Sequence record: MW876471
Strand: one strand, 5' to 3'
DNA length: 38,954 bases
Origin: Escherichia phage P762
Positions within the stretch are counted from its first letter, which is position 1. Every line of letters begins with the position of its first letter. The notes below the pieces were generated by a model, which made no database searches, was not told the DNA's origin, and saw only the letters and a list, made by a program, of their open reading frames with translations. A program made the position numbers and the translations under genes. Positions 1 to 38,954 of the stretch are shown here, piece by piece.

Positions 1-1931
1 ATAATGTCTCGACCAACCTGCCACGACTCTGGGTTATCCCCGACCATAAGCTGGTGTTTGGACACCATGCCTATGGACTTACCGTCAGAACCTTCAGACT
101 GGAACGTTACGGTGTTCTCATTCAGCCAGCGTTGAGTCTGCTGAGTTGCAGCGTCAGCGTTACCTGTACGATAGTACCATGAGTCCCAGACCTTACGAGC
201 ACTTGCGTCCAGAGACGTAGGAAGGCGAGAAAGGTCCTTATTCCGAGAGTCGTTCTTCAACTCCTGCCACGCCTTGTCTGACTCCATGCGCATCTCACGG
301 CTTTGACTTGCAGCTTGCTTATCCGCTTCAATCATCGTCTGAGGGTCCAGACCCATCTTGTCCATCTGGTCGAACGTAGAGAACAACTGAGCTTGGTCAG
401 GATACAGAGCAGCAAAACTTGAAGGGTCCTGAGTGTAGGCACGACGAAGAGATTCGAAGCGTTGCATCTTGTCTGGGTCGTACTGCCCACGGATGACCGC
501 AGCTTGCCACTCACCAGCAGCGTCCTGAGTCAGCGTCTGGAAGGCATTACGGAACGGACCATTGTTAGTGTCAGCCCTTAACAATGCCACCTTCTGCGCG
601 TCTTTAGCAGCCTCAGGGATGTCCATCTGGTCAATCTGCTGTAGCTTGGCAGACGCATAGTTGTTCATGTCCGAACGTTTGAACTCGCCTGTAGCATCTG
701 AGACCGGAAGGTCCTCATAGTTGGTGGACACGTTGTCCCCAGCCAGACGTCGCTGATACACTTGGTCTATGACTAGTTGCTTGTTCTGGGTCTGGATTAA
801 CTTAGTGTTCTCCTTCGCCTGTTCAGCGGACTTACGCTTGACCGCTTCCAGTAAGCTGGCTTCGGCATTAATAAGCATCTGACGCTGAGGCGTTAGTTCT
901 TCACCCGGCTGAAGCAGGTTGTTCTGCTCCTTGAGTTTCTGAATCTGTGCAAGACCAATGGTTGGGTCATCCTGAAGAATCGCAGACTGAACGCCTAACG
1001 CTAAGTCTTCCTGATACTTAGCCACCAGCTTGTACTCAGTTCCTTGTGCCTCAACAATAGCAGCGTTGAAGATATCAGGTCCTACAATCTCTTCGACTGT
1101 AGCGTCCACACCGTTAAGGGTGATTCGCTCGCCTCGTACTTGCTGTAGGAAGTTTGAGCCGCCAGACTTCTGGATTGCGTCACGGACCGTCTGGGTAATG
1201 ACCTCTCGTGCTCGCTGGTCAGAAGGGATAGCAGCAGTCGTCAGTCCATCCCGAAGGTAGGCCATGAAGGTCTTTCCAGACTCAGGCGAACGCATCAGGT
1301 CCCCATCGTTAAGGAACGAGTTCATCTCAATACGAGTGTTCAACATTGCTGTCTCTTCAGACTGCTTGCTGAAATACTTATTGAAGGACCCGTAGATAGC
1401 GATGTTTCGGTCCGTGATGTTATCGTTGAATCCACGCTGGAAGAACTCGTCGGTAGGGTTAATACCCGCCTCTTCAGCATAGGACTTAGCGGCATCCTGA
1501 AGTCGCTGGTGGCGATATTCTTCCATTTCCTGACGTGTGCGGAACTCACCGTTCTGAATCTTAACGTTAATCTCGTCGTCTACAGCAAAGGCAGCATTAC
1601 GACCAGTCTTGACTCGAAGTGCTTCCATAGCGTAAGGGTCGTCCTGATACAGCAATGTGCCGTTCTGGATAGCCTCACGTCTTTGCTGAGGTGTCAGTTT
1701 ACGGATAATCTCGTTAGACCGCTCGTCAGCTCTGGTCTTCTCATCGTCCTTGAACTGCTTGTACAATCCTGTCCCAGACTCAACGAAGTTAGTCAATGCA
1801 CGAGCCAGCCCGGAGTCCCCAGTCGGAGCCTGAACGTTGGCTGCTTGATAGTTGACGGCGATAGTTTTACCCGGCGCTCTGCCGCGACCCATAGTCCGAT
1901 TAGCCAGAGCTGATTCAATATTACTAGCCAT
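1..1931 (-). CDS. gp15: internal virion (core) protein gp15, 5' part; CDS runs off the window start and continues at 38476..38827
   Basis: ATG near 1931 preceded by GGAGG; translation MASNIESALANRTMGRG... contains DERSNEIIRKLTPQQRREAIQNGTLLYQDDPYAMEALRVKTGRNAAF, matching T7 gp15 as recalled; no stop before coordinate 1; in frame with the window-end ORF through the duplicated 127 bp. Confidence 0.85.
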   Translation of the reverse strand, partial: MASNIESALANRTMGRGRAPGKTIAVNYQAANVQAPTGDSGLARALTNFVESGTGLYKQFKDDEKTRADERSNEIIRKLTPQQRREAIQNGTLLYQDDPYAMEALRVKTGRNAAFAVDDEINVKIQNGEFRTRQEMEEYRHQRLQDAAKSYAEEAGINPTDEFFQRGFNDNITDRNIAIYGSFNKYFSKQSEETAMLNTRIEMNSFLNDGDLMRSPESGKTFMAYLRDGLTTAAIPSDQRAREVITQTVRDAIQKSGGSNFLQQVRGERITLNGVDATVEEIVGPDIFNAAIVEAQGTEYKLVAKYQEDLALGVQSAILQDDPTIGLAQIQKLKEQNNLLQPGEELTPQRQMLINAEASLLEAVKRKSAEQAKENTKLIQTQNKQLVIDQVYQRRLAGDNVSTNYEDLPVSDATGEFKRSDMNNYASAKLQQIDQMDIPEAAKDAQKVALLRADTNNGPFRNAFQTLTQDAAGEWQAAVIRGQYDPDKMQRFESLRRAYTQDPSSFAALYPDQAQLFSTFDQMDKMGLDPQTMIEADKQAASQSREMRMESDKAWQELKNDSRNKDLSRLPTSLDASARKVWDSWYYRTGNADAATQQTQRWLNENTVTFQSEGSDGKSIGMVSKHQLMVGDNPESWQVGRDI

Positions 1932-1942
1932 TAGTCCTCCTC

Positions 1943-2533
1943 TTAGCTATGACCTGTAGGTGTGCCTTTAGCAGCACTAATCGGTGCAGAACCACCGGAG
2001 CTAGATGCCCCAGCAATAGACTTACCAGCAGCATACCCTTGCATCCCGGCGCTAGCAACATTAAGTAGTGCATGGGCCAGTGGGCTGGTCTTTATGATTT
2101 TACCTTGACCACGGATAGCAGACTTGGTGTTCTCAATGTTGGCGATACGGTTCCCGAAGATAGCCGCATAGTCGCGGTTGTAACTTTCGGTAATCCCTGC
2201 TCGCTCCTTGACTGTATCTCCTTCGACCTGACGTTCAATCCTGTCCATAGAGTTCCCTTCCAGACCGGACTCAGCAACCGCAGCTCGGACCATACCCTGA
2301 TTGCGGATGCCGTTAAGCGTTGTCTCTGTAAGTTCAGCCATCTGCTGCTCCTTCAGGTCTCGCTCCTGCATCCTCAGGTTGGCGTCAGAGTAGTTCATCT
2401 GCTTAATCATCTCTTGAGCCTGTCGGTTCTGAGCGTCAATTGCTGCACCTTCGGCCTTGGCCTGCTGGGATGCGGACATAGTGGCCCCGGCTACAGCCAT
2501 GATACCCATGCCGATACTTACGGGTTCACACAT
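1943..2533 (-). CDS. gp14: internal virion protein gp14
   Basis: 196-aa ORF, same size and position as T7 gp14, between gp13 and gp15. Confidence 0.8.
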   Translation of the reverse strand: MCEPVSIGMGIMAVAGATMSASQQAKAEGAAIDAQNRQAQEMIKQMNYSDANLRMQERDLKEQQMAELTETTLNGIRNQGMVRAAVAESGLEGNSMDRIERQVEGDTVKERAGITESYNRDYAAIFGNRIANIENTKSAIRGQGKIIKTSPLAHALLNVASAGMQGYAAGKSIAGASSSGGSAPISAAKGTPTGHS

Positions 2534-2979
2534 ACGTCCTCCTTAGAGATAGTGAATAATTGAAAATGCTCACCAGTTACCGGGCTGATAGTCCAATCAT
2601 CATGGAACTTAGCCCCAAGCAACTTCAAGAATTTAATGTGAGACTTATTGCCTGACCACACGTAGTTCCAGATGGTCCCGTATTGGTCTAACATTAAGTC
2701 CCTGTATCGTGCAATGTGTAGTCCGAACTCTCGCTTCTCAGCCTTGGACAGACGGGAGACAAGACGGGAGGTAACGAACCAGACGTTATCACCTTGGTTT
2801 CCACCATAGGCGTATACTGTCCCCAGAGCATCGACCAAAACCACAGATGACGGAGTGAGGTGAGACATCAGGACAGGCTTCAAGTCTCTCCGTGGGTCAT
2901 TCGCCATCAGCTCATTAACGTCATCTATAGCAATTTCGAAGGACAATACATCCTGTTCAGTAGCTTTACGAATATACAT
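2518..2979 (-). CDS. gp13: internal virion protein gp13
   Basis: 153-aa ORF directly downstream of a phage promoter, in the gene 13 position between gp12 and gp14. Confidence 0.75.
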   Translation of the reverse strand: MYIRKATEQDVLSFEIAIDDVNELMANDPRRDLKPVLMSHLTPSSVVLVDALGTVYAYGGNQGDNVWFVTSRLVSRLSKAEKREFGLHIARYRDLMLDQYGTIWNYVWSGNKSHIKFLKLLGAKFHDDWTISPVTGEHFQLFTISKEDVCVNP

Positions 2980-3018
2980 AAAGTCTCCTCTTAAAGTATT
3001 ATAACTTAAAGGGCCTAT

Positions 3019-3041
3019 AGTCCCTATAGTGATAGTTAAGG
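3019..3041 (-). promoter_or_regulatory. phage RNAP promoter (phi13 position)
   Basis: minus-strand CTTAACTATCACTATAGGGA (plus strand tccctatagtgatagttaag), one of 11 copies of the same motif. Confidence 0.75.
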
Positions 3042-3065
3042 TAAATCTATAGGCCCTTCAATAAG

Positions 3066-5423
3066 TTAGACGGAACGAGCTTTCTTAGCGTATGACGCCT
3101 CCCAGCCACACCCAACGATGGACACTGGGGTAGGATAATCTGACTCTAAGGTTAGGCTCGTGGTTAATGCGTTACCATTCATAGCAAAGCGATACTGTCC
3201 ATCCCCAATGTTGGTAGTCCCGATGGTTTGCTGACCAAGTGTGTACCCGTTAAAGGTGTTCACGAACTCCCGCTCACCGTTTCTGACAATGAGCCTCAGA
3301 GCGCCAGTGTCTTTGTAGTTTACCCAAGCCCGACGAAGCTGTAGACGACCAGTGTCTTCAGACTTAGTTCCACTATCATCTTCAATCTTAATCAGGAACC
3401 GTGAGAACTTGTAGGACATCAGATAGGAACGTCCGATGAACACTGTGCGTCCTGACCAATCGCCGTTTAGGGTAACCACGGTAGAGATACTGGTCAAGTC
3501 CCCAAGGTCCACATAAGCACCCTGACTGTCAATCAGATAGTACCGACCGGGAGACGGAGCGTTGCCACCATAAGCAGCAGCAATGTCAACCGTAGTCTTA
3601 TAGGTGTCAGCATTATATGAGCCAATTGGAATTACCATAGACACCTTGGAGTCAATGTGTAGTCTATACGGCTCTGACGGGAAGTCAGTTGCCTCCTTGA
3701 TGAACTTAAGGTGCTCAATGTCTACCCCTCCTTGGTGCTGACGAATGATGAACATGGTAGAGCCAATAGAAGCAGACGCCAGAATCTTATCGTCTTTAGG
3801 GAACTCCCAGTGTGACCAAGAGGCTTGAAGCTGTACGCCGTCCTTAAACAAGAATTTGTAGATGTAGATTCGGTTGTATGCACCTGTAGAGTTGACGCAG
3901 ATGTAGTTCTCAGTCCCTGTACCTTGAATATCAAACACCCCGTTAGGGATGTAGGACAATACGTGACCAGTTGTATCATCGGCATCCTTCACATCAGACA
4001 CATCAGCTACAGCGAAGTATCGCTTAATGCTGGTGAATGACCCACGGGGGGCTGAGAAGAAGACTGAGCGTCCTACAGCGAACGGTCTGGCATTGTCACC
4101 TAAGGCAAACTCTGAGCCTACATCAAGCTGGATAGACTTCGAGGTAAGGACCCCAGAGCTTGTCATCACGAACTGAACCTCATCCGACCAAAGTAGTAGC
4201 TGCTCGCTAAACGGAACGGCATACTTAAGGATTGAGATACGAGGGTTACTTACAGCTACATCAATAGGGTCATCATCGCTCAGTGTCGCCACACTCTTAG
4301 GGAAGAACGCAAAGTAGCTGGCTGAACGGCTCATTATTACGTTCTCACCCGACAAGAACCCAAGTCTGTTCCTGTAGAAGAACACATCATTAATCGCAGC
4401 ATCCACGAAGCTAGGCATAGGGTTTGTGTCATCGTTACCAGCACCACGCTTGGACCAATCCAGAGTCTTAAACTCAAAGGAGCCATCAGGCTGTCTGACC
4501 AGAGCATGTGGCATTGTGGTGACATCAAAACCAGTGACAACTCCCGGCTCCACTGTCTCCTTCCACGTCTTAGTGTTGGAGTCATACATCACGTAGTATT
4601 CATCGGCGCTACTGTTTGTCTCACCTTGAATCTTAATGATATACCCATTAGGAGCGGCAAGAGGCAGTTTAGAGATTGTCTGCACAGTGTCTAGGACTGG
4701 GCTTATTAGCTGGTTAGCGTAGCCATCCTCCGTCTCCACTGAGTTAATATCGGTCCCTGAAGGAGCTGTGATTAGCAGGAAGCCAGACCCAAGGTCGAAC
4801 GTGAAGTCAGGATAGGCCTGAACAAGAAGGTCTCTCAGAGCTGCACCAATGGCTTGAGCGTCCACCTTAGGTGGGTCATTCTCGGCATCATTACCTGCTG
4901 GTAGCTTATGCGAGACCTTAACTCCACCGTTGATTCCCACCTTAAGGGTTCGACCATACTGTCCACCACGCAGGTTAATTAAAGCTCGTGCTTTGCGGTT
5001 ATAACCAGAGTGTGACTTCTCGCTTCCACCTTTGACGACAACCTTACGGTTAACGACGAACGTATAGTCTGCTACGGTAACGACACGGATGTCATCTCGT
5101 GGGTTGGAGGACTTAACGTAATCTACCGCACCTGACACTGAGTATTGATTGCCACTCAAGTCAACTACCTGAATGTTGGACCCATTGAACACGATGTAAT
5201 ACTGCTCATGCTCGTCACGGTTAATCAGGTGGAACTTAGGGTTGCTCCCAACGTCGATGTTAAGACGTCGCTTGAAGACTGTAGGTGGGCGCTTCTGGAG
5301 GCCATCACTCTCGGATGACCAGCAGTTAACCTGTGCCTCGCCTTGGTCTGAGAACCTCAGTATATCAGGCTGCTGGCTAATGCCACCTTTAAGGTTCTTG
5401 ATTGATTGAGTAATTAGTGGCAT
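3066..5423 (-). CDS. gp12: tail tubular protein B (gp12)
   Basis: 785-aa ORF, size and position as T7 gp12 (794 aa), downstream of gp11. Confidence 0.9.
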   Translation of the reverse strand: MPLITQSIKNLKGGISQQPDILRFSDQGEAQVNCWSSESDGLQKRPPTVFKRRLNIDVGSNPKFHLINRDEHEQYYIVFNGSNIQVVDLSGNQYSVSGAVDYVKSSNPRDDIRVVTVADYTFVVNRKVVVKGGSEKSHSGYNRKARALINLRGGQYGRTLKVGINGGVKVSHKLPAGNDAENDPPKVDAQAIGAALRDLLVQAYPDFTFDLGSGFLLITAPSGTDINSVETEDGYANQLISPVLDTVQTISKLPLAAPNGYIIKIQGETNSSADEYYVMYDSNTKTWKETVEPGVVTGFDVTTMPHALVRQPDGSFEFKTLDWSKRGAGNDDTNPMPSFVDAAINDVFFYRNRLGFLSGENVIMSRSASYFAFFPKSVATLSDDDPIDVAVSNPRISILKYAVPFSEQLLLWSDEVQFVMTSSGVLTSKSIQLDVGSEFALGDNARPFAVGRSVFFSAPRGSFTSIKRYFAVADVSDVKDADDTTGHVLSYIPNGVFDIQGTGTENYICVNSTGAYNRIYIYKFLFKDGVQLQASWSHWEFPKDDKILASASIGSTMFIIRQHQGGVDIEHLKFIKEATDFPSEPYRLHIDSKVSMVIPIGSYNADTYKTTVDIAAAYGGNAPSPGRYYLIDSQGAYVDLGDLTSISTVVTLNGDWSGRTVFIGRSYLMSYKFSRFLIKIEDDSGTKSEDTGRLQLRRAWVNYKDTGALRLIVRNGEREFVNTFNGYTLGQQTIGTTNIGDGQYRFAMNGNALTTSLTLESDYPTPVSIVGCGWEASYAKKARSV

Positions 5424-5432
5424 AGGCCCTCC

Positions 5433-5660
5433 TTAAATCATACTCATTAGGACGTATCCTTCAGCGATGTCATCAACGTCAGCAATGTGGACAACCTTAC
5501 GTGCTACCTGTTGTCCAGTATACCCGTTGTCCCACTCATTCAGGATAAGCCAATCGCCAACCTTAAAGTCCCGGTCGTTGAGTCTTAGCTCTGCTGTCTT
5601 TAGACCTAGTTGTACCGGACCAAAGTGCTGGCGGTGAATCTTCAGGTTGTGACTAGCCAT
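5433..5660 (-). CDS. DUF3850/ASCH (PUA-like) small protein, inserted between genes 11 and 12
   Basis: 75-aa ORF with GGAGG SD; start overlaps gp11 stop (TAATG); pattern H.LKI...F..V..G.KT.E.R.NDRDF.VGD.L.L.E.D...YTG...EGYV.MS matches the DUF3850 signature as recalled. Confidence 0.75.
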   Translation of the reverse strand: MASHNLKIHRQHFGPVQLGLKTAELRLNDRDFKVGDWLILNEWDNGYTGQQVARKVVHIADVDDIAEGYVLMSMI

Positions 5661-6226
5661 TAGTCCCTCCCGATGTCGGACATCATGTTGTAGCGACCCG
5701 TGTCCATCTCGTACTCCATAACCTGCTGATAGAGTTCTGCTTCCTGCTCACGAAGGTATAGCTCTGACTCTGGGCTACCGAAGAACTTAGCATTGAACTC
5801 ACGGCTAGCTTTAGTGACGATGTAGTCCCTGAAGACAACAGGCATCTCAGCGAATGGTTTCATCTCCACAAGCTCTACCGTGATAGGGTCGGTGAAAGTG
5901 GTTGACTGAGTGGATAGGTCGTACAGGTATCCACCCATGTTGCTGTAGTAGCTGGTGGCCCCCGCGGTCATTACACGAAGGTATGACGGCAGGAATCGAA
6001 TCCTATTGTCTTGGACATCAGGTGTCAGGACGGCAGCTTCGTTGATATTAAAGTTCCAGCCTTTAGCTTGGACCTGACGATTGACACGATGCAGTATACG
6101 TTGAGCGTTAGAGACGTCAGCGTTCCCCTCGTCAAGCTGTAGGACTGCTGGTTCACCGATAGCAGCTAACATATCGTTGATGGCATCTAAGTCATCGTTA
6201 GCATTCAGTGGAATGTATTGAGCCAT
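5660..6226 (-). CDS. gp11: tail tubular protein A (gp11)
   Basis: 188-aa ORF; AINDMLAAIGEP, IVTKASREFN and MEYEMDTGRYNM blocks match T7 gp11. Confidence 0.9.
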   Translation of the reverse strand: MAQYIPLNANDDLDAINDMLAAIGEPAVLQLDEGNADVSNAQRILHRVNRQVQAKGWNFNINEAAVLTPDVQDNRIRFLPSYLRVMTAGATSYYSNMGGYLYDLSTQSTTFTDPITVELVEMKPFAEMPVVFRDYIVTKASREFNAKFFGSPESELYLREQEAELYQQVMEYEMDTGRYNMMSDIGRD

Positions 6227-6246
6227 AAGTCTCCTCTCACTTTAAG

Positions 6247-6290
6247 CAAAAAAAACCCCTCAAGCACCCGAAGGCACCCAAGGGGTTTCA
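6247..6290 (-). terminator. T-phi-like rho-independent terminator after the capsid gene
   Basis: minus-strand AACCCCTTGGGTGCCTTCGGGTGCTTGAGGGGTTTTTTTT: GC hairpin with TTCG loop and U-run, same place and near-same sequence as T7 T-phi. Confidence 0.85.
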
Positions 6291-6291
6291 A

Positions 6292-7466
6292 TTAGTTGTT
6301 GGACTCAGCCAGTTTAGCGGCCCTGTTCGCAGCACGAGTACGCGCAGCTTTCTGTTGAGGAGTTAGAGTCTCCTCTTCAGGTGCAGCCGCTACTGTAGCG
6401 ACGTTAGGTTGGCTAAAGGTGCTTACGCCGCTGGGCTGAAAACCAGTGCGCCAGCCGCTTCAGGACGCAGACCACCGTGACCCATAGCGTATTTACCAAC
6501 AATCAGGTCGCCCTGAGCATCGACGTCACGGTCACGTTCCAGCGCCAAGTCACGCAGCTTCACAGTACCTACAGCAGAACGGTGAGAGAACAGACCCACA
6601 ACGTTATCCATAGCAACTTTAACGTCTCCAGTAGCAGTTGCCGGGAATGCGTGTTTCTGACCGGAAGCGATAGAGATACCATCGTCACCACGAGTCTCAC
6701 CAGCGCCACCCTGTACCAGATGCGGAACTTCAACAACAACGAAGCCCATCACGTTACGGATGTTACCAGTCTCTGGGTCAATCAGCGCAGCATAGTTAGC
6801 AGCGTTCGGCATCAGAGCAGCGAGGATTGCAGAGTAGTTGTCAGGCGTGGTGTAGAAGTAACGGTCGCCAGCAGGAACGTAGTTGGAGGTTAGCTTCGCA
6901 CGAGCAATGGTCAGTTGACCAATGATTGCTTCACCCAGTTTAGCCGGGGTGTCGAGGTCAGCTTTCTTGCCTACTTCAAGTACGGACGCGGTGCCCAGAC
7001 CAGCAATATTCTCGTTGGATGCAGCCGGGAGGTTACACAGGAGAGCCATTTCAGCCAGAACAGCACCATCGGCAGCGATAGCCAGAGCTTCCCCCAACTG
7101 GTTGGAATACTCGCCAGCCACGTCATAGTGGTTCATAGCGTCTTCAATGTCGAAAATCATCACATCGGCAGTCAGCAGACCATCAATGGTAATCACTTTC
7201 TCGGTATGTTTGATACCTTTACGCTTATCAGACAGTCGCTCACCCGGAGCCAGATACACACCAGAGGTGCGACCCATGACCGGGAACTGAGCAGACTTAC
7301 CGTTCTGAATGGTACGGACAATATGCTTGTCAGCAGTTACAGAGCGGCGAGTGAATGCGGTCAGGACTTCACCAGCAAAGACCTTCAGGAACAACGCAAG
7401 AGCGTCGGAACTGGACTTGCCTTTACCTTGGTCTGTACCAATTTTCTGACCCGGAACGTTTGCCAT
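6292..7466 (-). CDS. gp10B: minor capsid protein 10B, predicted by -1 ribosomal frameshift near the end of 10A
   Basis: heptamer GGTTTTC (~6438..6444) 5 codons before the 10A stop; the -1 frame is open for 47 further codons (QPSGVSTFSQPNVATVAAAPEEETLTPQQKAARTRAANRAAKLAESNN) and stops at ~6292, right against the terminator hairpin. Confidence 0.55.
6423..7466 (-). CDS. gp10A: major capsid protein 10A
   Basis: 347-aa ORF; long identical blocks to T7 10A (KHTEKVITIDGLLTAD, MPNAANYAALIDPE, HRSAVGTVKLRDLALER, AKYAMGHGGLRPEAAGA). Confidence 0.97.
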   Translation of the reverse strand: MANVPGQKIGTDQGKGKSSSDALALFLKVFAGEVLTAFTRRSVTADKHIVRTIQNGKSAQFPVMGRTSGVYLAPGERLSDKRKGIKHTEKVITIDGLLTADVMIFDIEDAMNHYDVAGEYSNQLGEALAIAADGAVLAEMALLCNLPAASNENIAGLGTASVLEVGKKADLDTPAKLGEAIIGQLTIARAKLTSNYVPAGDRYFYTTPDNYSAILAALMPNAANYAALIDPETGNIRNVMGFVVVEVPHLVQGGAGETRGDDGISIASGQKHAFPATATGDVKVAMDNVVGLFSHRSAVGTVKLRDLALERDRDVDAQGDLIVGKYAMGHGGLRPEAAGALVFSPAA

Positions 7467-7568
7467 ATGATAATTCTCCTATTCAATTGAAAGATAAAGT
7501 TTATTACTTACTGTATGCCCAATCCGTATGGACTGAAGTAATAGGGAAACCTTGAGTCTATCTCTCGG

Positions 7569-7591
7569 TCTCCCTATAGTGATAGTTTAGT
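7569..7591 (-). promoter_or_regulatory. phage RNAP promoter (phi10 position)
   Basis: plus-strand ctccctatagtgatagtttag; upstream of capsid gene with ~100-nt leader ending in AGGAGA SD. Confidence 0.8.
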
Positions 7592-7592
7592 C

Positions 7593-8477
7593 CTACAGGC
7601 TTGAGGCAGCTACCTTAGCGCGAACTTCCATCGTGTATTTAGCGTCACGCAGGTATCGCGGGTCACTCATAGCCTTAATCATGTCAGCCTTTGAGCTGAA
7701 TGCTTCGGTCTGAGGAGCCTTAGGTGCAACCACAGGTTTAGCCTGATTGGTGAGGGTACGCTGAGGTTTAACGCCTACAGCTTTACCCAGAGTCTTGCCA
7801 GCCAGATTCAGCAGAGCTTTGGTCGTAGCAATGTCCTTACGAACGATAGCAGCTTCCAGTGCCTCACGAGTTGACGGGTCGTTGGACTCAAGGTGTGACA
7901 GGATGCGATTAAACTGTTCAGCACCACCAGCGTAGCGAACCACACCAGCAGCATACTGTTCAGCCAGAGCTTCCTGACCACGGACAAACGAATCTACGAA
8001 ACGCTTGGTGTAACCTGCTTCCTGCAACTTAGCGTAGGATGCGTCAGACAGCTTACCGTCCTTGGCGTATTCAGCCTTGATAGCGGTAATTTCATCAGCA
8101 GTGACCTTGCCAGCTTCTACAGCAGAAGACACCATGTCGTCAAATGCAGCTTCGTTTTCATCCAGAGCGGTGACACTTTCGGTCAGCTCTTTCGGTGCAT
8201 CACCAAGTTCTACGAACTCAGGTTGCTCACCATCGGTCTCAGACTCTTCGTCATCGGACTCGTGGTCTTCCTCACCTTCAGCCTCTTCGACGTTCTCGTC
8301 TTCTTCGGTCACCTCTTCGTTTTCGGCTTCCAGTTGCTTGAAGGTAATAGCGTCATCGCCATCACGAACAGCTACGTCCTGTTCAAGCATAGACTTCTGG
8401 TGTTCGTTCAGGTCCTCAACGGAACCAGTGATTGCATTAGAGCTAACGCCGAACTCGGCATAAACTGATTGAGACAT
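7593..8477 (-). CDS. gp9: capsid assembly (scaffolding) protein gp9
   Basis: acidic protein; C-terminal MIKAMSDPRY and N-terminal VYAEFGV blocks match T7 gp9; start placed at internal ATG (MSQSVYAEF, AAGGAG SD) rather than the track start at 8543. Confidence 0.85.
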   Translation of the reverse strand: MSQSVYAEFGVSSNAITGSVEDLNEHQKSMLEQDVAVRDGDDAITFKQLEAENEEVTEEDENVEEAEGEEDHESDDEESETDGEQPEFVELGDAPKELTESVTALDENEAAFDDMVSSAVEAGKVTADEITAIKAEYAKDGKLSDASYAKLQEAGYTKRFVDSFVRGQEALAEQYAAGVVRYAGGAEQFNRILSHLESNDPSTREALEAAIVRKDIATTKALLNLAGKTLGKAVGVKPQRTLTNQAKPVVAPKAPQTEAFSSKADMIKAMSDPRYLRDAKYTMEVRAKVAASSL

Positions 8478-8565
8478 TGAGTCATTCTCCTTTAAGTCGT
8501 TAATAGGTAACGGGACAGAGTATGGTGGCTCCAAGTGGCACACTCTCGGTGAATGTGTGTCCCGT

Positions 8566-8588
8566 TGTTCCTATAGTGATAGTTTAGG
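8566..8588 (-). promoter_or_regulatory. phage RNAP promoter (phi9 position)
   Basis: plus-strand ttcctatagtgatagtttag between portal stop and scaffold gene. Confidence 0.75.
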
Positions 8589-15284: not shown

Positions 15285-15304
15285 GGTTAATCCTCCGTTT
15301 AGTC

Positions 15305-15345
15305 TAATCATAAAGGCCACTCGATGTGAATGACCTTGAGTCTAG
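15305..15345 (-). promoter_or_regulatory. conserved hairpin, candidate RNase III site (R4.7 position)
   Basis: RNA CUAGACUCAAGGUCAU-loop-GUGGCCUUUAUGAUUAG; 8-bp stem AAGGUCAU/GUGGCCUU; same motif at 22301..22345 and 31831..31872. Confidence 0.5.
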
Positions 15346-15347
15346 AC

Positions 15348-26941: not shown

Positions 26942-27273
26942 CACTCGCAGTCCTCTTCAGGCTCGAACCATACCACATCACGGCTATCAGACACATCGTT
27001 ATACAGTGCCTCGTAAATGCGAGCTTGCAGTATGCGCGTTACGTCCTTGGTATCAGGCATCAGCCCAGAGTCTTCGAACTCAATGTCTATACCATCAGCA
27101 GCCATCACCGTGAAAATCTCGTGGTAATAGTGCGGAACCTGACCGTCTACGACCTCATGCAGCGCATCGTGATAATCATCGCCTTCAGTTATTTCGTCGT
27201 ACTGAATGCGATCGTTAAATGCTTCAACAGTTGCAGCCAGCAGCTCATAGTATGCGTTAGCGTTACGTTCCAT
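26941..27273 (-). CDS. ocr: Ocr-like DNA-mimic anti-restriction protein (gene 0.3)
   Basis: acidic 110-aa protein; [41 protein letters not shown] almost identical to T7 Ocr. Confidence 0.93.
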
Positions 27274-27869: not shown

Positions 27870-28058
27870 TATACAGATAGAGACTCAGAGACAGACCAAT
27901 AGTCCCAACCTATCGTCCCGACCTCCAGCCATAGCCTCAACCTATCGTTGACCTGAAGTCTTGACCATTGGTCCAACCTTATGATAAACTGGGGTAGGGC
28001 CTTTGGTCTGGACTGAAAGAGGGCCTATGGGGAGACTTGAGGTTCTTGAACTGTGAGA
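27870..28058 (-). repeat. predicted direct terminal repeat of the linear genome, single collapsed copy; left genome end near 28058
   Basis: minus strand from ~28058 reads TCTCACAGTTCAAGAACCTCAAGTCTCCCCATAGGCCC, homologous to the first bases of the T7 terminal repeat; boundaries inferred only. Confidence 0.45.
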
Positions 28059-28643: not shown

Positions 28644-28666
28644 CTTCCCTATAGTGATAGTTAAGT
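28644..28666 (-). promoter_or_regulatory. phage RNAP promoter (phiOR position, after the terminase gene)
   Basis: plus-strand ttccctatagtgatagttaag. Confidence 0.75.
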
Positions 28667-28760: not shown

Positions 28761-30524
28761 CTAGTGGAACGTAACGTATGACCCTAGTCCTAGCTCGTCG
28801 TCAGTATCGTGAGTTACCCGGACCCCATTGTCCCAGAACTCAGTGTGGATGGACTCGAAGCCTTTCCGTGGGTTCTCCATCTGTTCCTCCAGCCACTCCT
28901 CAGTGACTTCACGTTCGCCTTTGTTGGCATCCTTAGCCATAGACTCAACGAAGAACTGCACACCGATAGCCAGCGCATCAAGTCGGTCATCGTGTGCCAA
29001 TGCTCCACGTTCACGAGAGATACGGGTCATCTGGTAGAAGAGAGAGTAGATAGGGTTACGAACACCATCCTTGTCAGAGGCTGTCTGGTAGTCTTGGACG
29101 ATAGCAGCAGCGTTGACGATAAGTCTGTGAGACCCCATGATAGGCTCCAGAACGTCACAGATGCGGAGTTCTTTCTGACCCTTACTCTTCACTTCAGTTA
29201 CAGCCGCAGGATGTATACGTGCCGCTACAGGCTTGAATAGCTCAAGGTACATACCATCACCGAAGTTACCCTCAATGACGTATTCGTTGACCTTCCACTT
29301 ACGACCAATCTTAGCCAAGGCTTCCAGCGTAGAGTCTTCATAACCACCACGCATACCACCAACTTCCATAGCGAAGATGTAACCGTTTAGCTGATACAGT
29401 ACCGCATAACCAGTTTCATCCTTACCACGACCACTAGGGTCAATGACCAGAATCTTCTGGGTGTACGAACTGAAGGCAGAACCTACAGTCTGATACGTGT
29501 GGTATGAGTCACCCATGAGTCCAACGTTAGGGACGTCCTCGCGCTTGTTCTGAGGGTTTGGCAGCCATTGGTAGACCATTGGGCTGGACGCTGGGTCCAA
29601 GTCGGCTACGATAAGGTCACGGAGCTTCAGAGGGTACTTCTCAGCATCACTCAGGTTCGGGTTAAGCATGAATTGTAGAGCGAAGCCAGCTTTACCATAG
29701 GACAGCTCACGTTCCTTCAGGTCCGTATCATCAAATCGTACTTCGTCTGTCGGACGCCAGTAGAAGGACTCAGGGTCCTCTTCCAGTTCTGCCTGAAGCA
29801 TAGGAGCCAGACGGTCGCCGTAAGACTGCCAGTCCTTCCTGTCGCGTGGATAACGAGCTGGCCAGATAGTAGTGGTATACCCACGACCCTCCAACTCACG
29901 ATACAGGGTCATCTCGTTCTGAGGAGTGCCCAGATAGATGATTGTACCTCCCGGCTTCAGGATAGCGTCGAACTCTTTCACAAGCTCTGACAGTCGGTCT
30001 CGCGCAGCCTGAGTAGCAGAGTTGTTTGGAACCTCCACGTCATCAGCAATAAGGATGTCAGCACGACTACCAGTCAACTGACCAGTGATGCCAACGGACT
30101 TAACCGAAGGTGAGTGGTCCGGCTTTGCTGGTCCAACGTCGAAGCTGATAACCGCATCCCTCTGTCCCTGCTTAGGTTTGAGTTCCTGAAGCTGAGGCAT
30201 GAGGTCGATGATTCGCTTGATGAAGATGGAGTTAGCATCTGCTCGTTCCTTTGAGGCCGACACAATCATGAACTTCAAGTCTGGGTTATTCCATAGCTTC
30301 CAGACCACGAAGGCACACGTAATGAAGGACTTCCCGATACCACGGAACGCCTGTAGGATGAAACGCCTGTTGTCCCCAGCCGATAGTTTCTTCGCCATGT
30401 CAATCTGGCAGCGAGTTGGTACTGGGAGTGACAGAGCTTTCCACAGGACGAACAGGAAGAACACGAAGTCTGCCTTCATACGGGCAGTCATTAGCGCCTG
30501 ACGCGCCACTAAGTCTTTACTCAA
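28761..30524 (-). CDS. gp19: terminase large subunit gp19
   Basis: 587 aa; [125 protein letters not shown] blocks match T7 gp19. Confidence 0.97.
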
Positions 30525-32381: not shown

Positions 32382-34520
32382 TTAATCATTCTCAGTATTA
32401 TACATCAATACAACCGGACCTGTATACGTTGCCGTAGATGCCAGGTTAGTCATGTTGTAAGGCCGCATTCTAACCTGATTGGTACTAATGAGGCGGGCCT
32501 TAAGTAGCCATGTATCATCATTTGTGTTTGCTGATGTCTCTTGAATAATTACAGAGGTTGCAGGTTGAAAATGGTCTGGTATGTTTCTGGTTACCACTCT
32601 AGCTGTGTCTGTACTTGTTAGAGTAAAGAACTCCCGCCCTGATGTAGATATTGCTGTACAGTTCTCTGTATAGTTATTCCTAATATCTGGCCTACTTGTG
32701 CGACCCTCCGCTAAAGTCTTCATCTTAATAACACTAGTATTCATAGCAGTTCCTGTCGTGTTACGGAACCTGCACTCAGTAACCTTCACCTGATATGGGT
32801 TAGATATCAGATTAATAGCCACCCCATGCGGAGGCACTAACCAGTTACAAGCATTAATCGTAAAGCGTGCACCATCACCATTTGATTCAATAAGACATCC
32901 ATCAAAATAACAATTAGAAAACTGGTCAGCATTAGACATGATAACAACACGACCCTTAGTACTATCCGTATCCTGATCTGGATAGAAGTGACAGTTACTA
33001 AATGCGTTAGCACCTTTACGCAAAATCATAACGTCTTTGTACTGGGAACCGATGATAATATCGGAGAAGTTATTATCATAGCAGTCAATGTCTAAACCTA
33101 CACCCTCTGTAACATGGGAAGGGAACGGGTAACGCCAGTCTGGTTGCTGGAATATATGAGTTTTACCCATATTCAACTCATGAGGTGTAGACCCATTTGG
33201 TTGCATTTTTACCCCATGCTGCAAATACCTAGTTAACAATCCACCCCATACGGTTACTTTTAAGAAATCACCGGTAATACGAATAGAACTTGCTGCCTTC
33301 CAGTTAGCATCAATATTTGGGTTAAAAACAACAATATTTTCAATTGGTCGTATACCATTAACCTTACGAAAATCCAGTACAGCGTCCGTATTAGGGAAAG
33401 AACCAATAGCGATGAGTGAAGGGTTCATCACAGCAAAGTTAAGGCAGTCATCAATAGTAAATGAGCGAGATACATAGTAGGCACCTTGGCTCATATCAAA
33501 AACAGCACCCCCAAGGTTAAACATGTTTGGGTCTTCTCGGCCTGTAGGATATGCGGTCTTACGGTTTCTTGCAATTACACTATCTCTCCAAAGAGCTAAT
33601 GCATCCGAACTGTCGAAGGTAGCTACATTGGGTTTGGCTCCATAGTTCCTTGGATCGTCAACAGAATATGCTGATAGATAGCCAACGCACACCCAATCAT
33701 CATCTGGCGATGAGTTCGGTGGTACAGTTATCGTTCCAGATATTGGAGAGTAATACATGTTATCCAGTGGGTTCAAAAGTGCAGATTCATTAGCTGTCGC
33801 TGAACCTCCAGTTAAAAACGTAACACCAGATATTTTTTTATATTCAAGTGCCATAAAATATGACTCAGCCCACTGCCTTGCAGAGGCATCACCAACGCTA
33901 ACCCACGCACCTAATCCAATCCCGCCGGAAGTTTCAGGAGTTGAACCAGCAGGAACGTTCTTTGGAAGCGTACCATCCCAGCGGTAATAAGCACCATCCT
34001 CTTCCCATAGCAGCACCTCGTTCCATGTTATAACGTTGAAGCCTTTCTCGAAGGAGCGGCGGGTAATATAGCTAATTCGACCAGATGCCTTGATACTCTC
34101 AGCGATTCGTCGTGCTTCATCCTCGCTATCCTTAGCGTTGCCAGCAGAGTTACCAGCAGCATCGGCATATTCCTTCGCTAAGTCAACAGTTTGGTCTCGA
34201 CCTTCTTCTGAAATATGGATAGCCTGAAGCTCTGCATTGGTCAGGTCACTAGCTGTCAACACTGATCCATTCCTGAAGTCTACCACTAAGTCAGTTCCAG
34301 TCTGACGGTGAATACGAACGATGTCAAAACCTGATTGGTCAACCAACATCTCAATCATCGTTGGATTAAGGAATCTGTAATCTCTACCAACTTCCAGTAC
34401 ACGGTTCAGGGTAGGGTTAGAGCTATTCACCAGCGTAACAACAACAAACGTTCTTGCTAGGTAGTCGAACTCAATCCTGTACTGAGTGTTTCCTGAAGGG
34501 AATTGTGTAATCGTGGACAT
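32382..34520 (-). CDS. gp17: tail fibre/tailspike gp17: T7-type N-terminal adaptor plus unrelated beta-helix-like, probably enzymatic, C-terminal domain
   Basis: N-terminal ~150 aa ([31 protein letters not shown]) match T7 gp17; the remaining ~560 aa are unrelated to T7 fibre, AT-richer, with [16 protein letters not shown]-type repeats. Confidence 0.9.
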
Positions 34521-34565: not shown

Positions 34566-34588
34566 GTTTCCTATAGTGATAGTTTAGT
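34566..34588 (-). promoter_or_regulatory. phage RNAP promoter (phi17 position)
   Basis: plus-strand tttcctatagtgatagtttag. Confidence 0.8.
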
Positions 34589-37500
34589 CCTTGATGTGGA
34601 TACCTTGCTCCTCAAACGTTCCCAGTAGCAACTTCTGGGTAATTGGGTCGTTCGGAACCAGTTCACGGAACGTATTATACATCCCGGTCATGTAGTCACG
34701 CTCGTTAACACGAGTATCAGCCTTGAGGTAGCCAGCCAAGTTGTAAGCCGAAGCGCCAACGTTAGCAGCATATCCGAAAGCTGGGACCTGCTCCAAGAAG
34801 TTACCAACAACATTCATCACAGGGTCACTTGTAGCCGCACCATATGTGATAGCACGTTCAGGCTTCTCTGTAGGTGAACGAGGTAGGATAGACGAGCGGA
34901 GCATCTTAGTGTCCTCATACCCAGCGATACCGCCAAGAATATTAGCGACCCCAAGTGGTCCACCTAGATGTGAACTACGGGACAGAGCCGCATAGCCGAT
35001 CATCGTCGGGTTCAGAGCTTGCTTGAGATACTCACGGTCTCGACCATCCTGCATAGCGTAAGCCTTGATGTGAGCCTGAGCCATGTAGTAGATACCAGCA
35101 AGACCCATAGACATCACAGTGGACAGGGCGGCGTCCATCGCTCGGTTATTCTTCGTGGCGTTATAGAAGGTTCGCATGGTTCGCCCATTGATGGACTTGA
35201 TGACGAAGTTCTTAAACTGAAGGACAGTCTTAGCGAGAGGACTATAAGCCTTGGCGTCCATGTTTGACAGCTTGTGGGGCCGGAGTAACGTTTCGTCAGC
35301 GATGGTGTCACCCATACGCCACAGGTCCATAGCCCTTGGGTCCTGACTAAACGCCTTCTTATCCTTGATCGTGTACTTCCCGTCTGGACCACGAGTCACT
35401 GACTCACGGATTAATGACTTAATGCCCTTCCACTGCTCGTCAGAGATACCAGCGGTCTTCAGCCAGCGGTCATCGAACCGACGCTTACTACCAGTCAGAC
35501 TATGCTCCACTATGTCAGACAGGAAGCCTTGACGTCCAGCATCTAACAGGTAGTTTGTCGTACCGTTGAGGACTTTAGTTAACGGAGAGCGTACTGCAAG
35601 TTCACCAGTGTAATACTTGGCAGTCCCCAGAGCTGTAGCCGTACCACGACCGAGGTCACTGTAAGACCGCAGACGGTCAATGACATCCTGTTTAGACGGA
35701 CGGATTGAGTCATCCAGTTCCTTACCGAATATAACATTGTGCAGGTCCTTAATCTCTGAGGCCCCTACCTTCTTGTTACGGAAGGCTAGGTCACGGAACA
35801 TCGGGACTCCATGTAGTAGCGCACGAACGTTACCACGAGCCAGCATACCACCAATCTCCGTTAAGTTCTGAATACCCATGTAGGCATTCTTAGCGAAGAA
35901 CGATAGGTCTGTCATTGTGCGCAGAACGGTATTGAAGGCTGCATCGTCGGCACCATCACGTCGAGCACGACCGGTGAGAATCTTCAAGGTGTCACGTAAG
36001 GTAGATACCTCACCTTTCAACTTACCGTCATCCCCAGCCTTGTTCATCATGGTCTCAACCAAGTCCTTCATGTCCTTCGTGGTCTTTCCTGTACCAGCCA
36101 TGATAGCTATGTCCCCATTAACTCGACGGTTGTACGCCGGAACAATCTTGTCCATGTCCCACTCACGCAGGTTGTTGACACTGAAGGTCTGACCATTAGG
36201 TAGGACGATTGACATATCGCTATCGAACAGGTTACGAGCCTCAAGGAAGCTGTTGTTCTCCAGACCAACCAGACCGTTGATGTTCTCTTCCATTACGGAT
36301 GAGCGTTCGAACTGCTCGGTGTGAGAGATACCGTAAGCCTTATCGTTGGCGTACTTATCGACCGCAGCCGCAAGTCCTTCTGGAGTCAACGTAGGGTCAG
36401 CCTCTAAGAGTGCCTCGTCCACGCGTTTCTTTACTTCAGGTCGAGACGCATAGCTGGTCAACCATGACTTCTTGATGGCCTCCTGCAACGCCTCTGGACT
36501 CCCAAGCTCCTTGATGTACAGCTCCTTCATCTGTTTGCTATACACATGAGGGACGTAGGTTCCCTTGAAGCGGCTACCCGGAAAGATAGACTGAGCGTCT
36601 GGCCGACCAAACATAGCTGGGTTCTCCATCATCTCACGCTTGGCGTCAAACTGGTTCTTCAGCAGGTCATAGACTTTCAGTTCTCCCGGAGTCAGTTCAG
36701 CCTTCAGGTTTCCGCTACCATCTTCGATAGCCATAGACACACGCTGGTAGATGTCCTGACGGAATGCGCCAGAGTCTCGCCAGAATGCTGTCTGGAAGTA
36801 CGGGTCCTTTAGTGCCTCAGTAACCGCATCGTCGATGTCATTGTAGAACCGATGGTCCACAGCACGAAGTCTCTCGAATACGTCTGACGCAGTGGTCCCG
36901 ATTTTACCTGAAGCACCAGACTGCATACCAGTTGGTGAACGCACTAAGTCAGCAGCGACTCCACGAATCTCAGGGTTCTCAGACCGAAGCAGCTTCAGGC
37001 CAATCTCAGTCAGACCACCAAGGTTCACACCAGCAGCGGCACGTTCAGGCTCAATCACTTCGTCAAAGACCTGACGTGTCTTAGGGTTCAGAGGGTTCTC
37101 ACCAATCAGGATTGAACCATCTTCAAGTCGTACACTACCCGGCTCGTTAGGAACGTCAGCGAACTTAACGCCTTGATGACTAAAGGTCTGCTCACCTTCC
37201 TGAATAGGGAGACGAGACAGGTCCTGACCATCAACGTTACGAGCGGTCTCACGAGCTTCCAGACGTGTAGCTGGACCAGCAAACTCATTAGTGTTGCGGC
37301 CCAAGGCTCTTCCTAGTCCATCAGCGATAGCAGTCATACCCCCACCGAAGAGAGCACCACCAAGGATAGCCTCAGCCACATGAGCATCACCACCAGCCAC
37401 TGATGTACGGGCCATCTCTGACACACCAGCAAGTGCTCCAGATTGAGCAGCCACGGTGAACATCTTGTTGACCAGCTTACCACCTTTGCCAACCTGTCCA

Positions 37501-38471
37501 GCGATAGGAACGTAGGTCAGCGGGTCTACACCAGCACCAATCACACCAGCGGCTAACTGAGCGCCAGTCCCAGCCTTGGCCTTCTCTTGGTCCAACTTCT
37601 GGTTCTCCAGCGCCAAGTTGATCAGCTCTGTCAGATTCTGAGGAGAACCGCCAGTAATTACTCCGTAATACTGAGGCAGAACCCCAGAGTTACGAATCTG
37701 GTCAAGCTCTTCACGAGTCCACTTATGGTTGTTCCATCTGGTTGGGTTGAACACGTCGCCAATGACATCGAGTGAGTCCTCTGTTTGCCCAGCGCGGATA
37801 GCCACGCCGACCATAGAGTTCTTCACTTCAGCTTCTGTAGCAGCACCAAAACCGAACCACGTAGAGCGGTCCTCTCGTTCCTGCATGGTCTCTCCAGTAG
37901 CCTTATAGAACATCTCACCGAACGATTCGTTGGGAGCTTCAGGTGCTTGACCCTCAATGTTCAGACCAGCAGCGGTCGGAAGGTTCTCACCCAGAGCTAC
38001 TTTAGGTTTAGACTTGAGTCCTTCCGTGAGTGCGTCAAATACGTTAGCGCTTACTGGTGGCGTCTTTGGGCTGATACCGTTGAGTGCTCTTGCGACTCCC
38101 TGCTGATAGACTTCAGGGTTGTACCGGGAGCCTGTCTCGTGGAAGCTGATAGCTTGTGCCAGAGAAGACAGGGTGTCCGGGTCCGAGAGGTCTAGACTCT
38201 GGGTAGCTGGGATACCAGTCGCAGCCACCACTGAGTCAATATAAGCCTGAGTGTCATTCTCATTAGGAGGCGCCCATCGGTTGATGATCTTCTCGATGGA
38301 GTCATAACCTTGGCGACCGTAGGACAGCAGGTTTTTACCTAAAGCTCGGACGCCAGACTCTGGACTATCGAAAATGACAAATGCGCCATCATCTCCAGTC
38401 ATTCCTTCCCATTGGTCCTTACTTACCCGGATGTTCCCCGGATTGTTATTGCGAATACCACGAGTCGCCAT
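34584..38471 (-). CDS. gp16: internal virion (core/ejection) protein gp16
   Basis: ~1295 aa from ATG at ~38471 (AAGGAG SD) rather than the TTG track start; collinear with T7 gp16 from about residue 200 (TRWN..W, VVTGGSP.NL, GAGVDPL.YVP, RLEARETARN, RSPTGMQSGASGK, ENPAMFG, GTYVPHVY...); N-terminal ~200 aa differ from T7. Confidence 0.9.
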   Translation of the reverse strand: MATRGIRNNNPGNIRVSKDQWEGMTGDDGAFVIFDSPESGVRALGKNLLSYGRQGYDSIEKIINRWAPPNENDTQAYIDSVVAATGIPATQSLDLSDPDTLSSLAQAISFHETGSRYNPEVYQQGVARALNGISPKTPPVSANVFDALTEGLKSKPKVALGENLPTAAGLNIEGQAPEAPNESFGEMFYKATGETMQEREDRSTWFGFGAATEAEVKNSMVGVAIRAGQTEDSLDVIGDVFNPTRWNNHKWTREELDQIRNSGVLPQYYGVITGGSPQNLTELINLALENQKLDQEKAKAGTGAQLAAGVIGAGVDPLTYVPIAGQVGKGGKLVNKMFTVAAQSGALAGVSEMARTSVAGGDAHVAEAILGGALFGGGMTAIADGLGRALGRNTNEFAGPATRLEARETARNVDGQDLSRLPIQEGEQTFSHQGVKFADVPNEPGSVRLEDGSILIGENPLNPKTRQVFDEVIEPERAAAGVNLGGLTEIGLKLLRSENPEIRGVAADLVRSPTGMQSGASGKIGTTASDVFERLRAVDHRFYNDIDDAVTEALKDPYFQTAFWRDSGAFRQDIYQRVSMAIEDGSGNLKAELTPGELKVYDLLKNQFDAKREMMENPAMFGRPDAQSIFPGSRFKGTYVPHVYSKQMKELYIKELGSPEALQEAIKKSWLTSYASRPEVKKRVDEALLEADPTLTPEGLAAAVDKYANDKAYGISHTEQFERSSVMEENINGLVGLENNSFLEARNLFDSDMSIVLPNGQTFSVNNLREWDMDKIVPAYNRRVNGDIAIMAGTGKTTKDMKDLVETMMNKAGDDGKLKGEVSTLRDTLKILTGRARRDGADDAAFNTVLRTMTDLSFFAKNAYMGIQNLTEIGGMLARGNVRALLHGVPMFRDLAFRNKKVGASEIKDLHNVIFGKELDDSIRPSKQDVIDRLRSYSDLGRGTATALGTAKYYTGELAVRSPLTKVLNGTTNYLLDAGRQGFLSDIVEHSLTGSKRRFDDRWLKTAGISDEQWKGIKSLIRESVTRGPDGKYTIKDKKAFSQDPRAMDLWRMGDTIADETLLRPHKLSNMDAKAYSPLAKTVLQFKNFVIKSINGRTMRTFYNATKNNRAMDAALSTVMSMGLAGIYYMAQAHIKAYAMQDGRDREYLKQALNPTMIGYAALSRSSHLGGPLGVANILGGIAGYEDTKMLRSSILPRSPTEKPERAITYGAATSDPVMNVVGNFLEQVPAFGYAANVGASAYNLAGYLKADTRVNERDYMTGMYNTFRELVPNDPITQKLLLGTFEEQGIHIKD

Positions 38472-38475
38472 TATG

Positions 38476-38954
38476 TTACTCCTTACCAATTAGTGCGTTT
38501 GCGATACCCTCCAGTGAGACGTCATTGTACATCCCACCGCGCTTCTCGATATTGGCCTCTCGGTCAGCTCGACGTTTATCACCAGCAGCTTTAGTCCCGA
38601 CGATACGCGCTCGCTTGTTAGCGTCACGTTCTGCCTGAGCGTATGCGGCATCTTGTGCCTTCTGCTGTTGTTCGCGGTAGAGTTTACCTACAATTTCTTT
38701 ATCGTATCGAATACGAATAGTCCCTGTAGCGTCTTGGAGGAAGATAGAGCCGTTCTGTTCAACAACGGACAACTGAGAGTTCACTACCCAAGGGTTAGCC
38801 TTAATGAGTTGCTGACGAGCTGTGTCGATAATGTCTCGACCAACCTGCCACGACTCTGGGTTATCCCCGACCATAAGCTGGTGTTTGGACACCATGCCTA
38901 TGGACTTACCGTCAGAACCTTCAGACTGGAACGTTACGGTGTTCTCATTCAGCC
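38476..38954 (-). CDS. gp15: internal virion protein gp15, 3' part (same CDS as 1..1931)
   Basis: C-terminal translation ..SWQVGRDII..ANPWVVN.QL...GSIFL.DATG.IRIRYDKE matches the T7 gp15 C-terminus; upstream part lies beyond the window end. Confidence 0.85.
   Translation of the reverse strand, partial: LNENTVTFQSEGSDGKSIGMVSKHQLMVGDNPESWQVGRDIIDTARQQLIKANPWVVNSQLSVVEQNGSIFLQDATGTIRIRYDKEIVGKLYREQQQKAQDAAYAQAERDANKRARIVGTKAAGDKRRADREANIEKRGGMYNDVSLEGIANALIGKE
38828..38954. repeat. 127-bp exact duplicate of window positions 1..127 (circular-assembly overlap)
   Basis: end sequence ataatgtctcgaccaacctgccacgactctggg...ttctcattcagcc is identical to the first 127 bases; lies inside the gp15 coding sequence. 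Confidence 0.9.

Follow-up and report, generated by a model that had tools for sequence, protein, structure and literature searches.

A Kayfunavirus genome deposited in reversed and permuted form: sequence organization of Escherichia phage P762

The closest described relatives of Escherichia phage P762, whose sequence record MW876471 comprises a single stretch of 38,954 nucleotides (here, in its full length, the window), are members of the genus Kayfunavirus, a group of T7-related coliphages. One of these, EcoDS1 (NC_011042), carries an expert-style annotation with the terminal repeats, the concatemer junction, the host and phage promoters, and the terminators. In the Kayfunavirus Ro45lw, which has also been sequenced, the terminal repeat is 190 bp long (PMC9866566). 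The repeats of EcoDS1 and Ro45lw thus span 178-190 bp, and a short direct terminal repeat (DTR) is annotated in the record of the Providencia phage EPr2. Compared with these phages, the window is very probably a complete genome of a lytic Kayfunavirus, written in reverse orientation and in circular permutation, with an assembler overlap of 127 bases at its ends and with its own terminal repeat collapsed to one copy. This is an ordinary genome and a routine bookkeeping matter; its sole unusual content consists of a late gene for a protein of 263 amino acids (aa) and a swapped beta-helix module in the tailspike.

Window ends and the reconstruction of gene 15

The first 127 bases of the window and its last 127 bases (38828-38954) match exactly, at 127 of 127 positions; this is the longest identity between any prefix and suffix of the window, and the bases flanking the two copies differ. 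In a scan of the window against itself, this end pair was the sole long repeat, the other repeat families being phage promoters of 27-47 nt and three 49-nt hairpin elements (see below). Trimming one of the two copies leaves a circle of 38,827 bp. When position 38827 is joined to position 1, a single open frame runs on the minus strand from the ATG at 1931, just preceded by AAGAGGAGG, to a stop codon ending at 38476. It encodes 760 aa and aligns with the gene 15 product (gp15) of EcoDS1 from residues 1-760 to 1-760 at 98.3% identity. Base 1 of the window falls within codon 644 of this gene, and the duplicated bases cover codons 602-644. The features at the window ends are as follows:

1..127: end duplication, copy 1, probable assembler k-mer overlap (identity to 38828-38954)
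38828..38954: end duplication, copy 2, redundant and to be trimmed (identity to 1-127)
1..1931, minus strand: 5' part of gene 15 (internal virion protein C), codons 1-644 (in-phase join; 98.3% to EcoDS1 gp15)
38476..38827, minus strand: 3' part of gene 15, from within codon 644 through the stop codon (in-phase join)

A preliminary description of this DNA, made from the letters alone, had claimed that both ends of the window carry the same 127 bases and that its boundary splits gene 15. It had named two outcomes that would speak against it, namely ends that differ on exact alignment and gene 15 frames that do not join in phase; the ends proved identical and the frames proved to be in phase. Its remark that gp15 is absent from the track of open reading frames (ORFs) holds for the 5' part of the gene, which is missing from the mechanical ORF list, and does not hold for the 3' part, which is listed there as a spurious 139-aa ORF (38476..38895) with an internal ATG as its start.

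In EcoDS1, the 127-nt segment is present in a single copy (28674-28800) that matches both window ends and lies, as ordinary coding sequence, inside an uninterrupted gene. The number 127 is the largest k in the automatic k series of SPAdes. Overlaps of 127 bp at the ends of contigs are a documented artifact of this assembler that is to be trimmed (PMC5923482). The window resembles such terminal overlaps on circular contigs in the exactness of the end identity, in a length that equals the assembler k, and in a position that is arbitrary with respect to biology, and nothing seen in it differs from them. The duplication is best explained as an assembly by-product rather than a biological feature, as had been proposed from the letters: the segment is single copy in EcoDS1, the homolog of the real repeat is located elsewhere (27879-28058), and the length is the one documented for SPAdes. 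The assembler itself appears to have been a SPAdes-like program run with k = 127.

The probable terminal repeat and other readings of the record

Base 1 of EcoDS1 aligns with position 28058 of the window and its last base with position 27879, both on the minus strand; the two annotated copies of the EcoDS1 terminal repeat (1-178 and 39075-39252) fall on this one place, 28058-27879. In a global alignment, the repeat segment measures 180 bp in the window versus 178 bp in EcoDS1, and the first 71 nt are identical. Read on the minus strand, the left end at 28058 begins with TCTCACAGTT; T7 shares the same first 9 nt, TCTCACAGT, and the left end of phage K1F matches further, to about base 43. The left end that the preliminary description had predicted near 28058 turns out to be exact to the base. 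The window holds one copy of this segment, in agreement with collapse by the assembler:

27879..28058, minus strand: probable direct terminal repeat, single collapsed copy of 180 bp, its left end reading TCTCACAGTTCAAGAACC... (alignment with EcoDS1 repeat 1-178)

The window runs colinearly through gene 19.5, the repeat segment, the early promoters, and gene 0.3, which is the order of a concatemer junction. Its colinearity extends over the whole of EcoDS1 and continues without a break across the right end, the terminal repeat, and the left end; its sequence content is complete, as had been claimed before, with the second repeat copy presumably collapsed in the circular assembly.

Short tandem and dispersed repeats of 13-16 nt (e.g., CCTACAGTCTCAGC) are found at 27808-27840, 27894-27924, and 28115-28142, on either side of the terminal repeat as well as inside it, and are reminiscent of the short repeat arrays beside the terminal repeats of T7.

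The form of the record very probably arose in the following way. The packaged DNA would be linear, with a direct terminal repeat of ∼180 bp, and its replication would produce head-to-tail concatemers. A short-read de Bruijn assembler would therefore have merged the two repeat copies and closed the genome into a cycle. The cycle would then have been printed from an arbitrary break within gene 15 (codon 644), in the orientation opposite to that of transcription, and its last k-mer (k = 127) would have been printed at both ends. Reverse complementation and rotation to 28058 would restore the sequence of left end, early promoters, gene 0.3, gene 1, replication genes, virion genes, lysis and packaging genes, and right end. 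On the evidence of the alignment, the packaged molecule should carry a second copy of the 180-bp repeat, for a predicted genome of 39,007 bp, and the virion ends would lie exactly at 28058 and 27879. The large terminases of this phage and EcoDS1 share 99.3% identity, and the same mode of cutting is therefore expected.

Two points weigh against this reconstruction. That the 127 bases are an artifact, that the 180-bp segment is doubled, and where exactly the termini lie are inferred from homology and from the telling length rather than from observation. In addition, the right boundary at 27879 depends on one annotated relative and lies in a part of the sequence that has diverged (85% identity over the first 256 nt).

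Among deposited Kayfunavirus genomes, collapsed terminal repeats seem to be common. An independent Logan contig of 39.8 kb (SRR10902856) and the RefSeq record of phage ST31 (NC_047829), which is flagged as circular, are both permuted, and the left-end motif occurs just once in each, at an internal position.

As the contig closes on itself, the genome might be truly circular, or else permuted and terminally redundant as a result of headful packaging, with no fixed ends. The records of the genus, which start at varied points and on either strand, as well as the circular flag of ST31, fit such an arrangement, but the varied start points are explained by assembly, and the records with determined ends show fixed ends with repeats of 178-190 bp (EcoDS1 and Ro45lw [PMC9866566], together with the short DTR annotated in EPr2). 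The terminase, moreover, is of the T7 type (Pfam Terminase-T7_RNaseH-like), and the left end matches that of EcoDS1 base for base over 71 nt and that of K1F over a shorter length, which would be unexpected for random ends. This arrangement is accordingly very improbable.

There is a similarly slim chance that the contig is incomplete or is a chimera of two related co-occurring phages, in which the C-terminal part of the tailspike gp17 and the 263-aa gene (both described below) were mis-joined. Identity to any one relative is indeed patchy, several segments are replaced compared to EcoDS1, and none of the database records extends over both halves at ≥95%. However, the junctions all fall at gene or domain boundaries and leave the reading frames intact. 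An independent 712-aa protein, P0053, combines the same N-terminal adaptor and C-terminal module at 90% identity, and the 263-aa gene is found in the same slot in phages CLB_P1 and EPr2. Mosaicism is normal in Kayfunavirus, and no essential T7-type gene is missing.

Entry of T7-type DNA into the host is polar and proceeds from the left end. The idea that the 127 bases are a real direct terminal repeat, so that virion DNA starts and ends inside gene 15, has in its favor the exact identity of the ends, which completeness tools would label as "DTR" whenever it reaches at least 20 bp, but it is the least credible of all: an infecting molecule of this kind would carry gene 15 in two pieces; a distance of ∼11-12 kb would separate either end from the early promoters and gene 0.3 (27296-27656 in the 38,954-base window); the homolog of the true repeat, with its conserved TCTCACAGT end, sits at 27879-28058; the large terminase is nearly the same as that of EcoDS1 (99.3% identity), the ends of which are annotated; the segment is single-copy coding sequence in EcoDS1; and its length equals a standard assembler k (PMC5923482).

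With the window taken as a complete genome carrying an assembler overlap, one 127-base copy must be trimmed and the record must be reverse complemented and rotated to 28058; a second copy of the 180-bp repeat is to be appended if read data bear it out. Otherwise, annotation misses gene 15, the stated genome length is incorrect, and the artifact is mistaken for a biological terminal repeat by completeness tools.

Gene content, transcription signals, and variable regions

All 49 assigned genes are located on the minus strand, where they cover 92% of the circle. Colinear counterparts on this strand were found for 48 of the 53 EcoDS1 genes. Matches to 34 T7 proteins (26-75% identity) follow a strictly monotonic order, and the nucleotide high-scoring segment pairs with T7 are co-oriented in 25 of 25 cases. 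The EcoDS1-type phage promoter core, TAAACTATCACTATAGG, has 11 matches, every one of them on the minus strand (0.04 expected by chance) and each with an annotated EcoDS1 counterpart. Synteny with both phages and the orientation of the promoters bear out the earlier statement that the minus-strand genes stand in the canonical T7 order. The main genes and blocks are listed below:

26941..27273, minus strand: gene 0.3, anti-restriction DNA mimic Ocr, the gene that comes first from the left end (93.6% to EcoDS1 gp0.3; Pfam ocr, E = 1e-30)
23133..25814, minus strand: gene 1, single-subunit RNA polymerase (RNAP), 893 aa (99.0% to EcoDS1, 62.7% to T7 gp1; Pfam RNA_pol, E = 1.6e-106, and RPOL_N)
13113..17224, minus strand: replication block with gene 4 primase/helicase (15524-17224), gene 4.3, and gene 5 DNA polymerase (13113-15320)
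1943..10152, minus strand: virion block with gene 8 portal (8584-10152), gene 9 scaffold, gene 10A capsid (6423-7466), gene 11, gene 12 nozzle (3066-5423), and genes 13 and 14
34584..38471, minus strand: gene 16, internal virion protein D (98.4% identity to EcoDS1 gp16 over 1295 aa)
28761..30524, minus strand: gene 19, large terminase, 587 aa (99.3% to EcoDS1 gp19; Pfam Terminase-T7_RNaseH-like)

The gene 4 and gene 5 products are 97% identical to those of EcoDS1 and contain the Pfam domains Toprim, DnaB_C, and DNA_pol_A; judging from the alignment, gene 5 probably starts at 15284. The virion block proteins, which also have Pfam matches, show 94-99% identity to their EcoDS1 counterparts, with the exception of gp13 (59%). 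The start of gene 16 was set by alignment with EcoDS1, the longest ORF starting at 38489. Near the end of gene 10A, a T7-type slip sequence, GGTTTTC, is present on the minus strand at 6434-6446, and the −1 frame runs on for ∼50 codons to ∼6290, which resembles the minor capsid extension 10B, as noted for EcoDS1.

The plus strand contains 68 ORFs of at least 60 aa, nearly all of them antisense shadows of homolog-supported genes, and none of the ten that were tested had a PHROG match. Two overlapping plus-strand ORFs of 78 and 65 aa at 27403-27639, in the early leader, are not shadowed by any minus-strand gene; they have no PHROG match and are most likely noncoding.

A strictly lytic life cycle is the habit of the T7 family. 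The Pfam scan covered 56 candidate proteins (the 49 genes and 7 ORFs from the gaps, at E ≤ 0.001) and detected no integrase, recombinase, repressor, or excisionase domain among them, while ARAGORN found no tRNA gene in the window; the obligately lytic lifestyle suggested earlier from the apparent lack of integrase, repressor, and tRNA genes agrees with both results. The families that were detected are of the T7 type only: Ocr, RNAP, ligase, gp2 inhibitor, single-stranded DNA-binding protein, endonuclease I, amidase, primase-helicase, DNA polymerase, exonuclease, portal, scaffold, capsid, tail tube, nozzle, gp13, gp14, holin, small and large terminase, and spanins.

Generic scans for sigma-70 promoters and for intrinsic terminators each gave no more hits in the window than in shuffled sequence. 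The only terminators kept were the two strongest hairpins, which are long and match those of EcoDS1, and because the sigma-70 scan did not rise above chance, the early promoters are assigned by homology to the EcoDS1 host promoters only. The transcription signals are as follows:

28648..28664, minus strand: phiOR-type phage promoter (TAAACTATCACTATAGG match)
3023, 7573, 8570, 11391, 17459, 19824, 20696, 22346, 25888, and 34570, minus strand: the other ten TAAACTATCACTATAGG promoters
27625-27656, 27486-27515, and 27296-27332, minus strand: early leader with three TTGAC(A/T) sites resembling host RNAP promoters (homology to EcoDS1 host promoters)
20759..20786, minus strand: early terminator TE, 12-bp stem and T run, after the ligase gene (position of EcoDS1 TE)
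6252..6289, minus strand: late terminator Tphi, 17-bp stem and T8, after gene 10 (position of EcoDS1 phiTE)

A 49-nt element is present in three copies (22296-22344, 26610-26658, and 31823-31871), all transcribed from the minus strand; each folds as a stable hairpin that contains an internal loop (z scores from −3.2 to −5.5). The first copy lies upstream of gene 1.1, the second upstream of gene 0.6, and the third in the interval between genes 18 and 18.5, and their positions resemble those of the T7 RNase III processing sites R1.1, R0.5, and R18.5.

The two unusual coding regions both lie among the late genes:

32382..34520, minus strand: gene 17, tailspike, with an N-terminal part of 215 aa (conserved adaptor and Tail_spike_N) and a C-terminal swapped beta-helix module of 497 aa
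30537..31328, minus strand: additional late gene for the 263-aa protein, counterpart of CLB_P1 gene 18.8, located between spanin genes 18.5/18.7 and gene 19

The N-terminal 215 aa of gp17 consist of a T7 tail-fiber adaptor and a Tail_spike_N domain. For residues 216-712 (32382-33875), no match in the phage database exceeded 56% identity. In larger protein collections, this C-terminal module was found at 93% identity on a 71.7-kb contig and at 60-70% identity in proteins where it is fused to P22-type head-binding domains. Its structural model (predicted local distance difference test score [pLDDT] of 78) is a beta-helix of the class seen in the tailspikes of Sf6, HK620, and Det7, a resemblance at the level of fold class only (TM score of ∼0.3). 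The module looks like an ordinary exchange between unrelated podoviruses, and the sharing of such modules is useful for host-range prediction.

The slot of the 263-aa gene, the start of which overlaps the end of gene 18.5, is occupied in EcoDS1 by a 53-aa ORF. The protein shows 87% identity to the product of CLB_P1 gene 18.8 and 47% identity to the EPr2 protein encoded in the same slot. In the phage collection, the only other carriers of the gene were two Kayfunavirus phages (CLB_P1, with two records, and Bas105, where it is partial) and EPr2, and a word-based protein search returned four close relatives. Neither this protein nor gp17 had an entry in an exact-protein index, and an exact 47-mer taken from the tailspike gene had no match in IMG/VR. 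The whole family comprises 47 clusters among 1.84 billion protein representatives, with a conserved C-terminal region of 145 aa behind variable N-termini. The protein belongs to no Pfam family and has no sequence match in PDB at E ≤ 1; its sole PHROG match is to a PHROG of unknown function. The AlphaFold2 model, which is confident (pLDDT of 91.9), consists of two beta domains, the C-terminal one being a knob of the TNF/C1q type that resembles the knob of the Sf6 tail needle, the lectin domain of BC2L-C, and TNF/C1q-like jelly rolls. The label "putative protease" attached to CLB_P1 gene 18.8 found no support in domain or fold searches and was rejected. Distant homologs occur in disagreeing contexts, such as an opposite-strand, moron-like gene in pSb-1 and a gene between the portal and the protease/capsid genes in the Uetakevirus PAT1, and because of this inconsistency no function can be assigned to the protein. 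Besides the observed fold resemblance, late-operon position, and rarity of the family, the model leaves room for a tentative and rather doubtful proposal, namely that the protein forms a trimeric TNF/C1q-like knob in the virion and acts there as a second binder of the host surface, perhaps docked on the Tail_spike_N branching domain of gp17, or as a capsid decoration. If so, a small subset of Kayfunavirus phages would have gained an extra function in adsorption or stability, one that the phages of the T7 family are not known to possess.

Relatives and taxonomic placement

In a megablast search, ST31, TM1, yong1, and EcoDS1 matched the window with ∼93-95% identity over 94-98% of its first 25 kb, while matches to the remaining 14 kb were patchier; the top database matches of both parts were Kayfunavirus records. 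The best nucleotide match for bases 1-25000 was ST31, with 98% coverage at 94.3% identity. Multiplied, these values give 92%, and the best corresponding product for bases 25000-38954 is 77% (82% coverage at 93.4% identity), so that no record in the collection, searched to August 2025, can exceed ∼87% overall. The species line was taken as ≥95% whole-genome similarity to a described member, and the phage is probably a new species because no record in the collection can reach that line. For genera, the ICTV criterion is ≥70% whole-genome nucleotide similarity. The VIRIDIC-like intergenomic similarity was 84.9% to EcoDS1 and 84.4% to ST31, within the limits of Kayfunavirus, and 27.6% to T7, well below the limit for Teseptimavirus. 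The single-subunit RNAP, the conserved gene order on one strand, and the phage promoters spread along the coding strand are those of the Autographiviridae and Studiervirinae, and the phage is a member of Autographiviridae, Studiervirinae, genus Kayfunavirus. The designation of the genome as T7-like is therefore correct for the gene order, the single coding strand, and the subfamily and does not extend to the genus. With this record, a genus of strictly lytic coliphages that already has many members probably gains a new species; no open question is advanced.

Between EcoDS1 and the window, identity is high for the RNAP (99.0%), the terminase (99.3%), gp15 (98.3%), and the capsid protein (98.8%), and EcoDS1 shares the same 11 phage promoters, TE, Tphi, and the first 71 nt of the left end. 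The window lacks EcoDS1 gene 13.5 (endonuclease VII) and the small ORFs orf3, orf7, orf16, and orf52; gp5.5 (40% identity), gp13 (59%), gp1.7 (62%), and the ligase (75%) have diverged; the 263-aa gene is inserted between genes 18.5 and 19; and the C-terminal module of gp17 is different. The EcoDS1 record, furthermore, was deposited as a linear molecule with both repeats, whereas the window is permuted and reversed and has one repeat copy. Points of loss or replacement of EcoDS1 genes are at 2533-2539, 23127-23131, 19997-20091, and 12826-13097; at these points, gene 13.5 and orf7 have been lost cleanly, other sequence stands in place of orf16, and gp5.5, of the H-NS inhibitor family, shows only 40% identity.

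ST31 (NC_047829) differs from the window in having another tailspike and an HNH endonuclease before gene 8 and in being without the 263-aa gene. For T7 (NC_001604; Teseptimavirus), 13 genes, including 0.7, 2.8, 3.8, 4.5, 4.7, 5.3, 5.9, and 7.7, have no protein match in the window. The T7 promoter consensus differs from that of the window (TAAACTATCACTATAGG), and T7 has a tail fiber where the window encodes a tailspike, but the two have in common the gene order, the single strand of transcription, the single-subunit RNAP, the TCTCACAGT left end, the slip site in gene 10, and, as predicted for the window, short direct terminal repeats.

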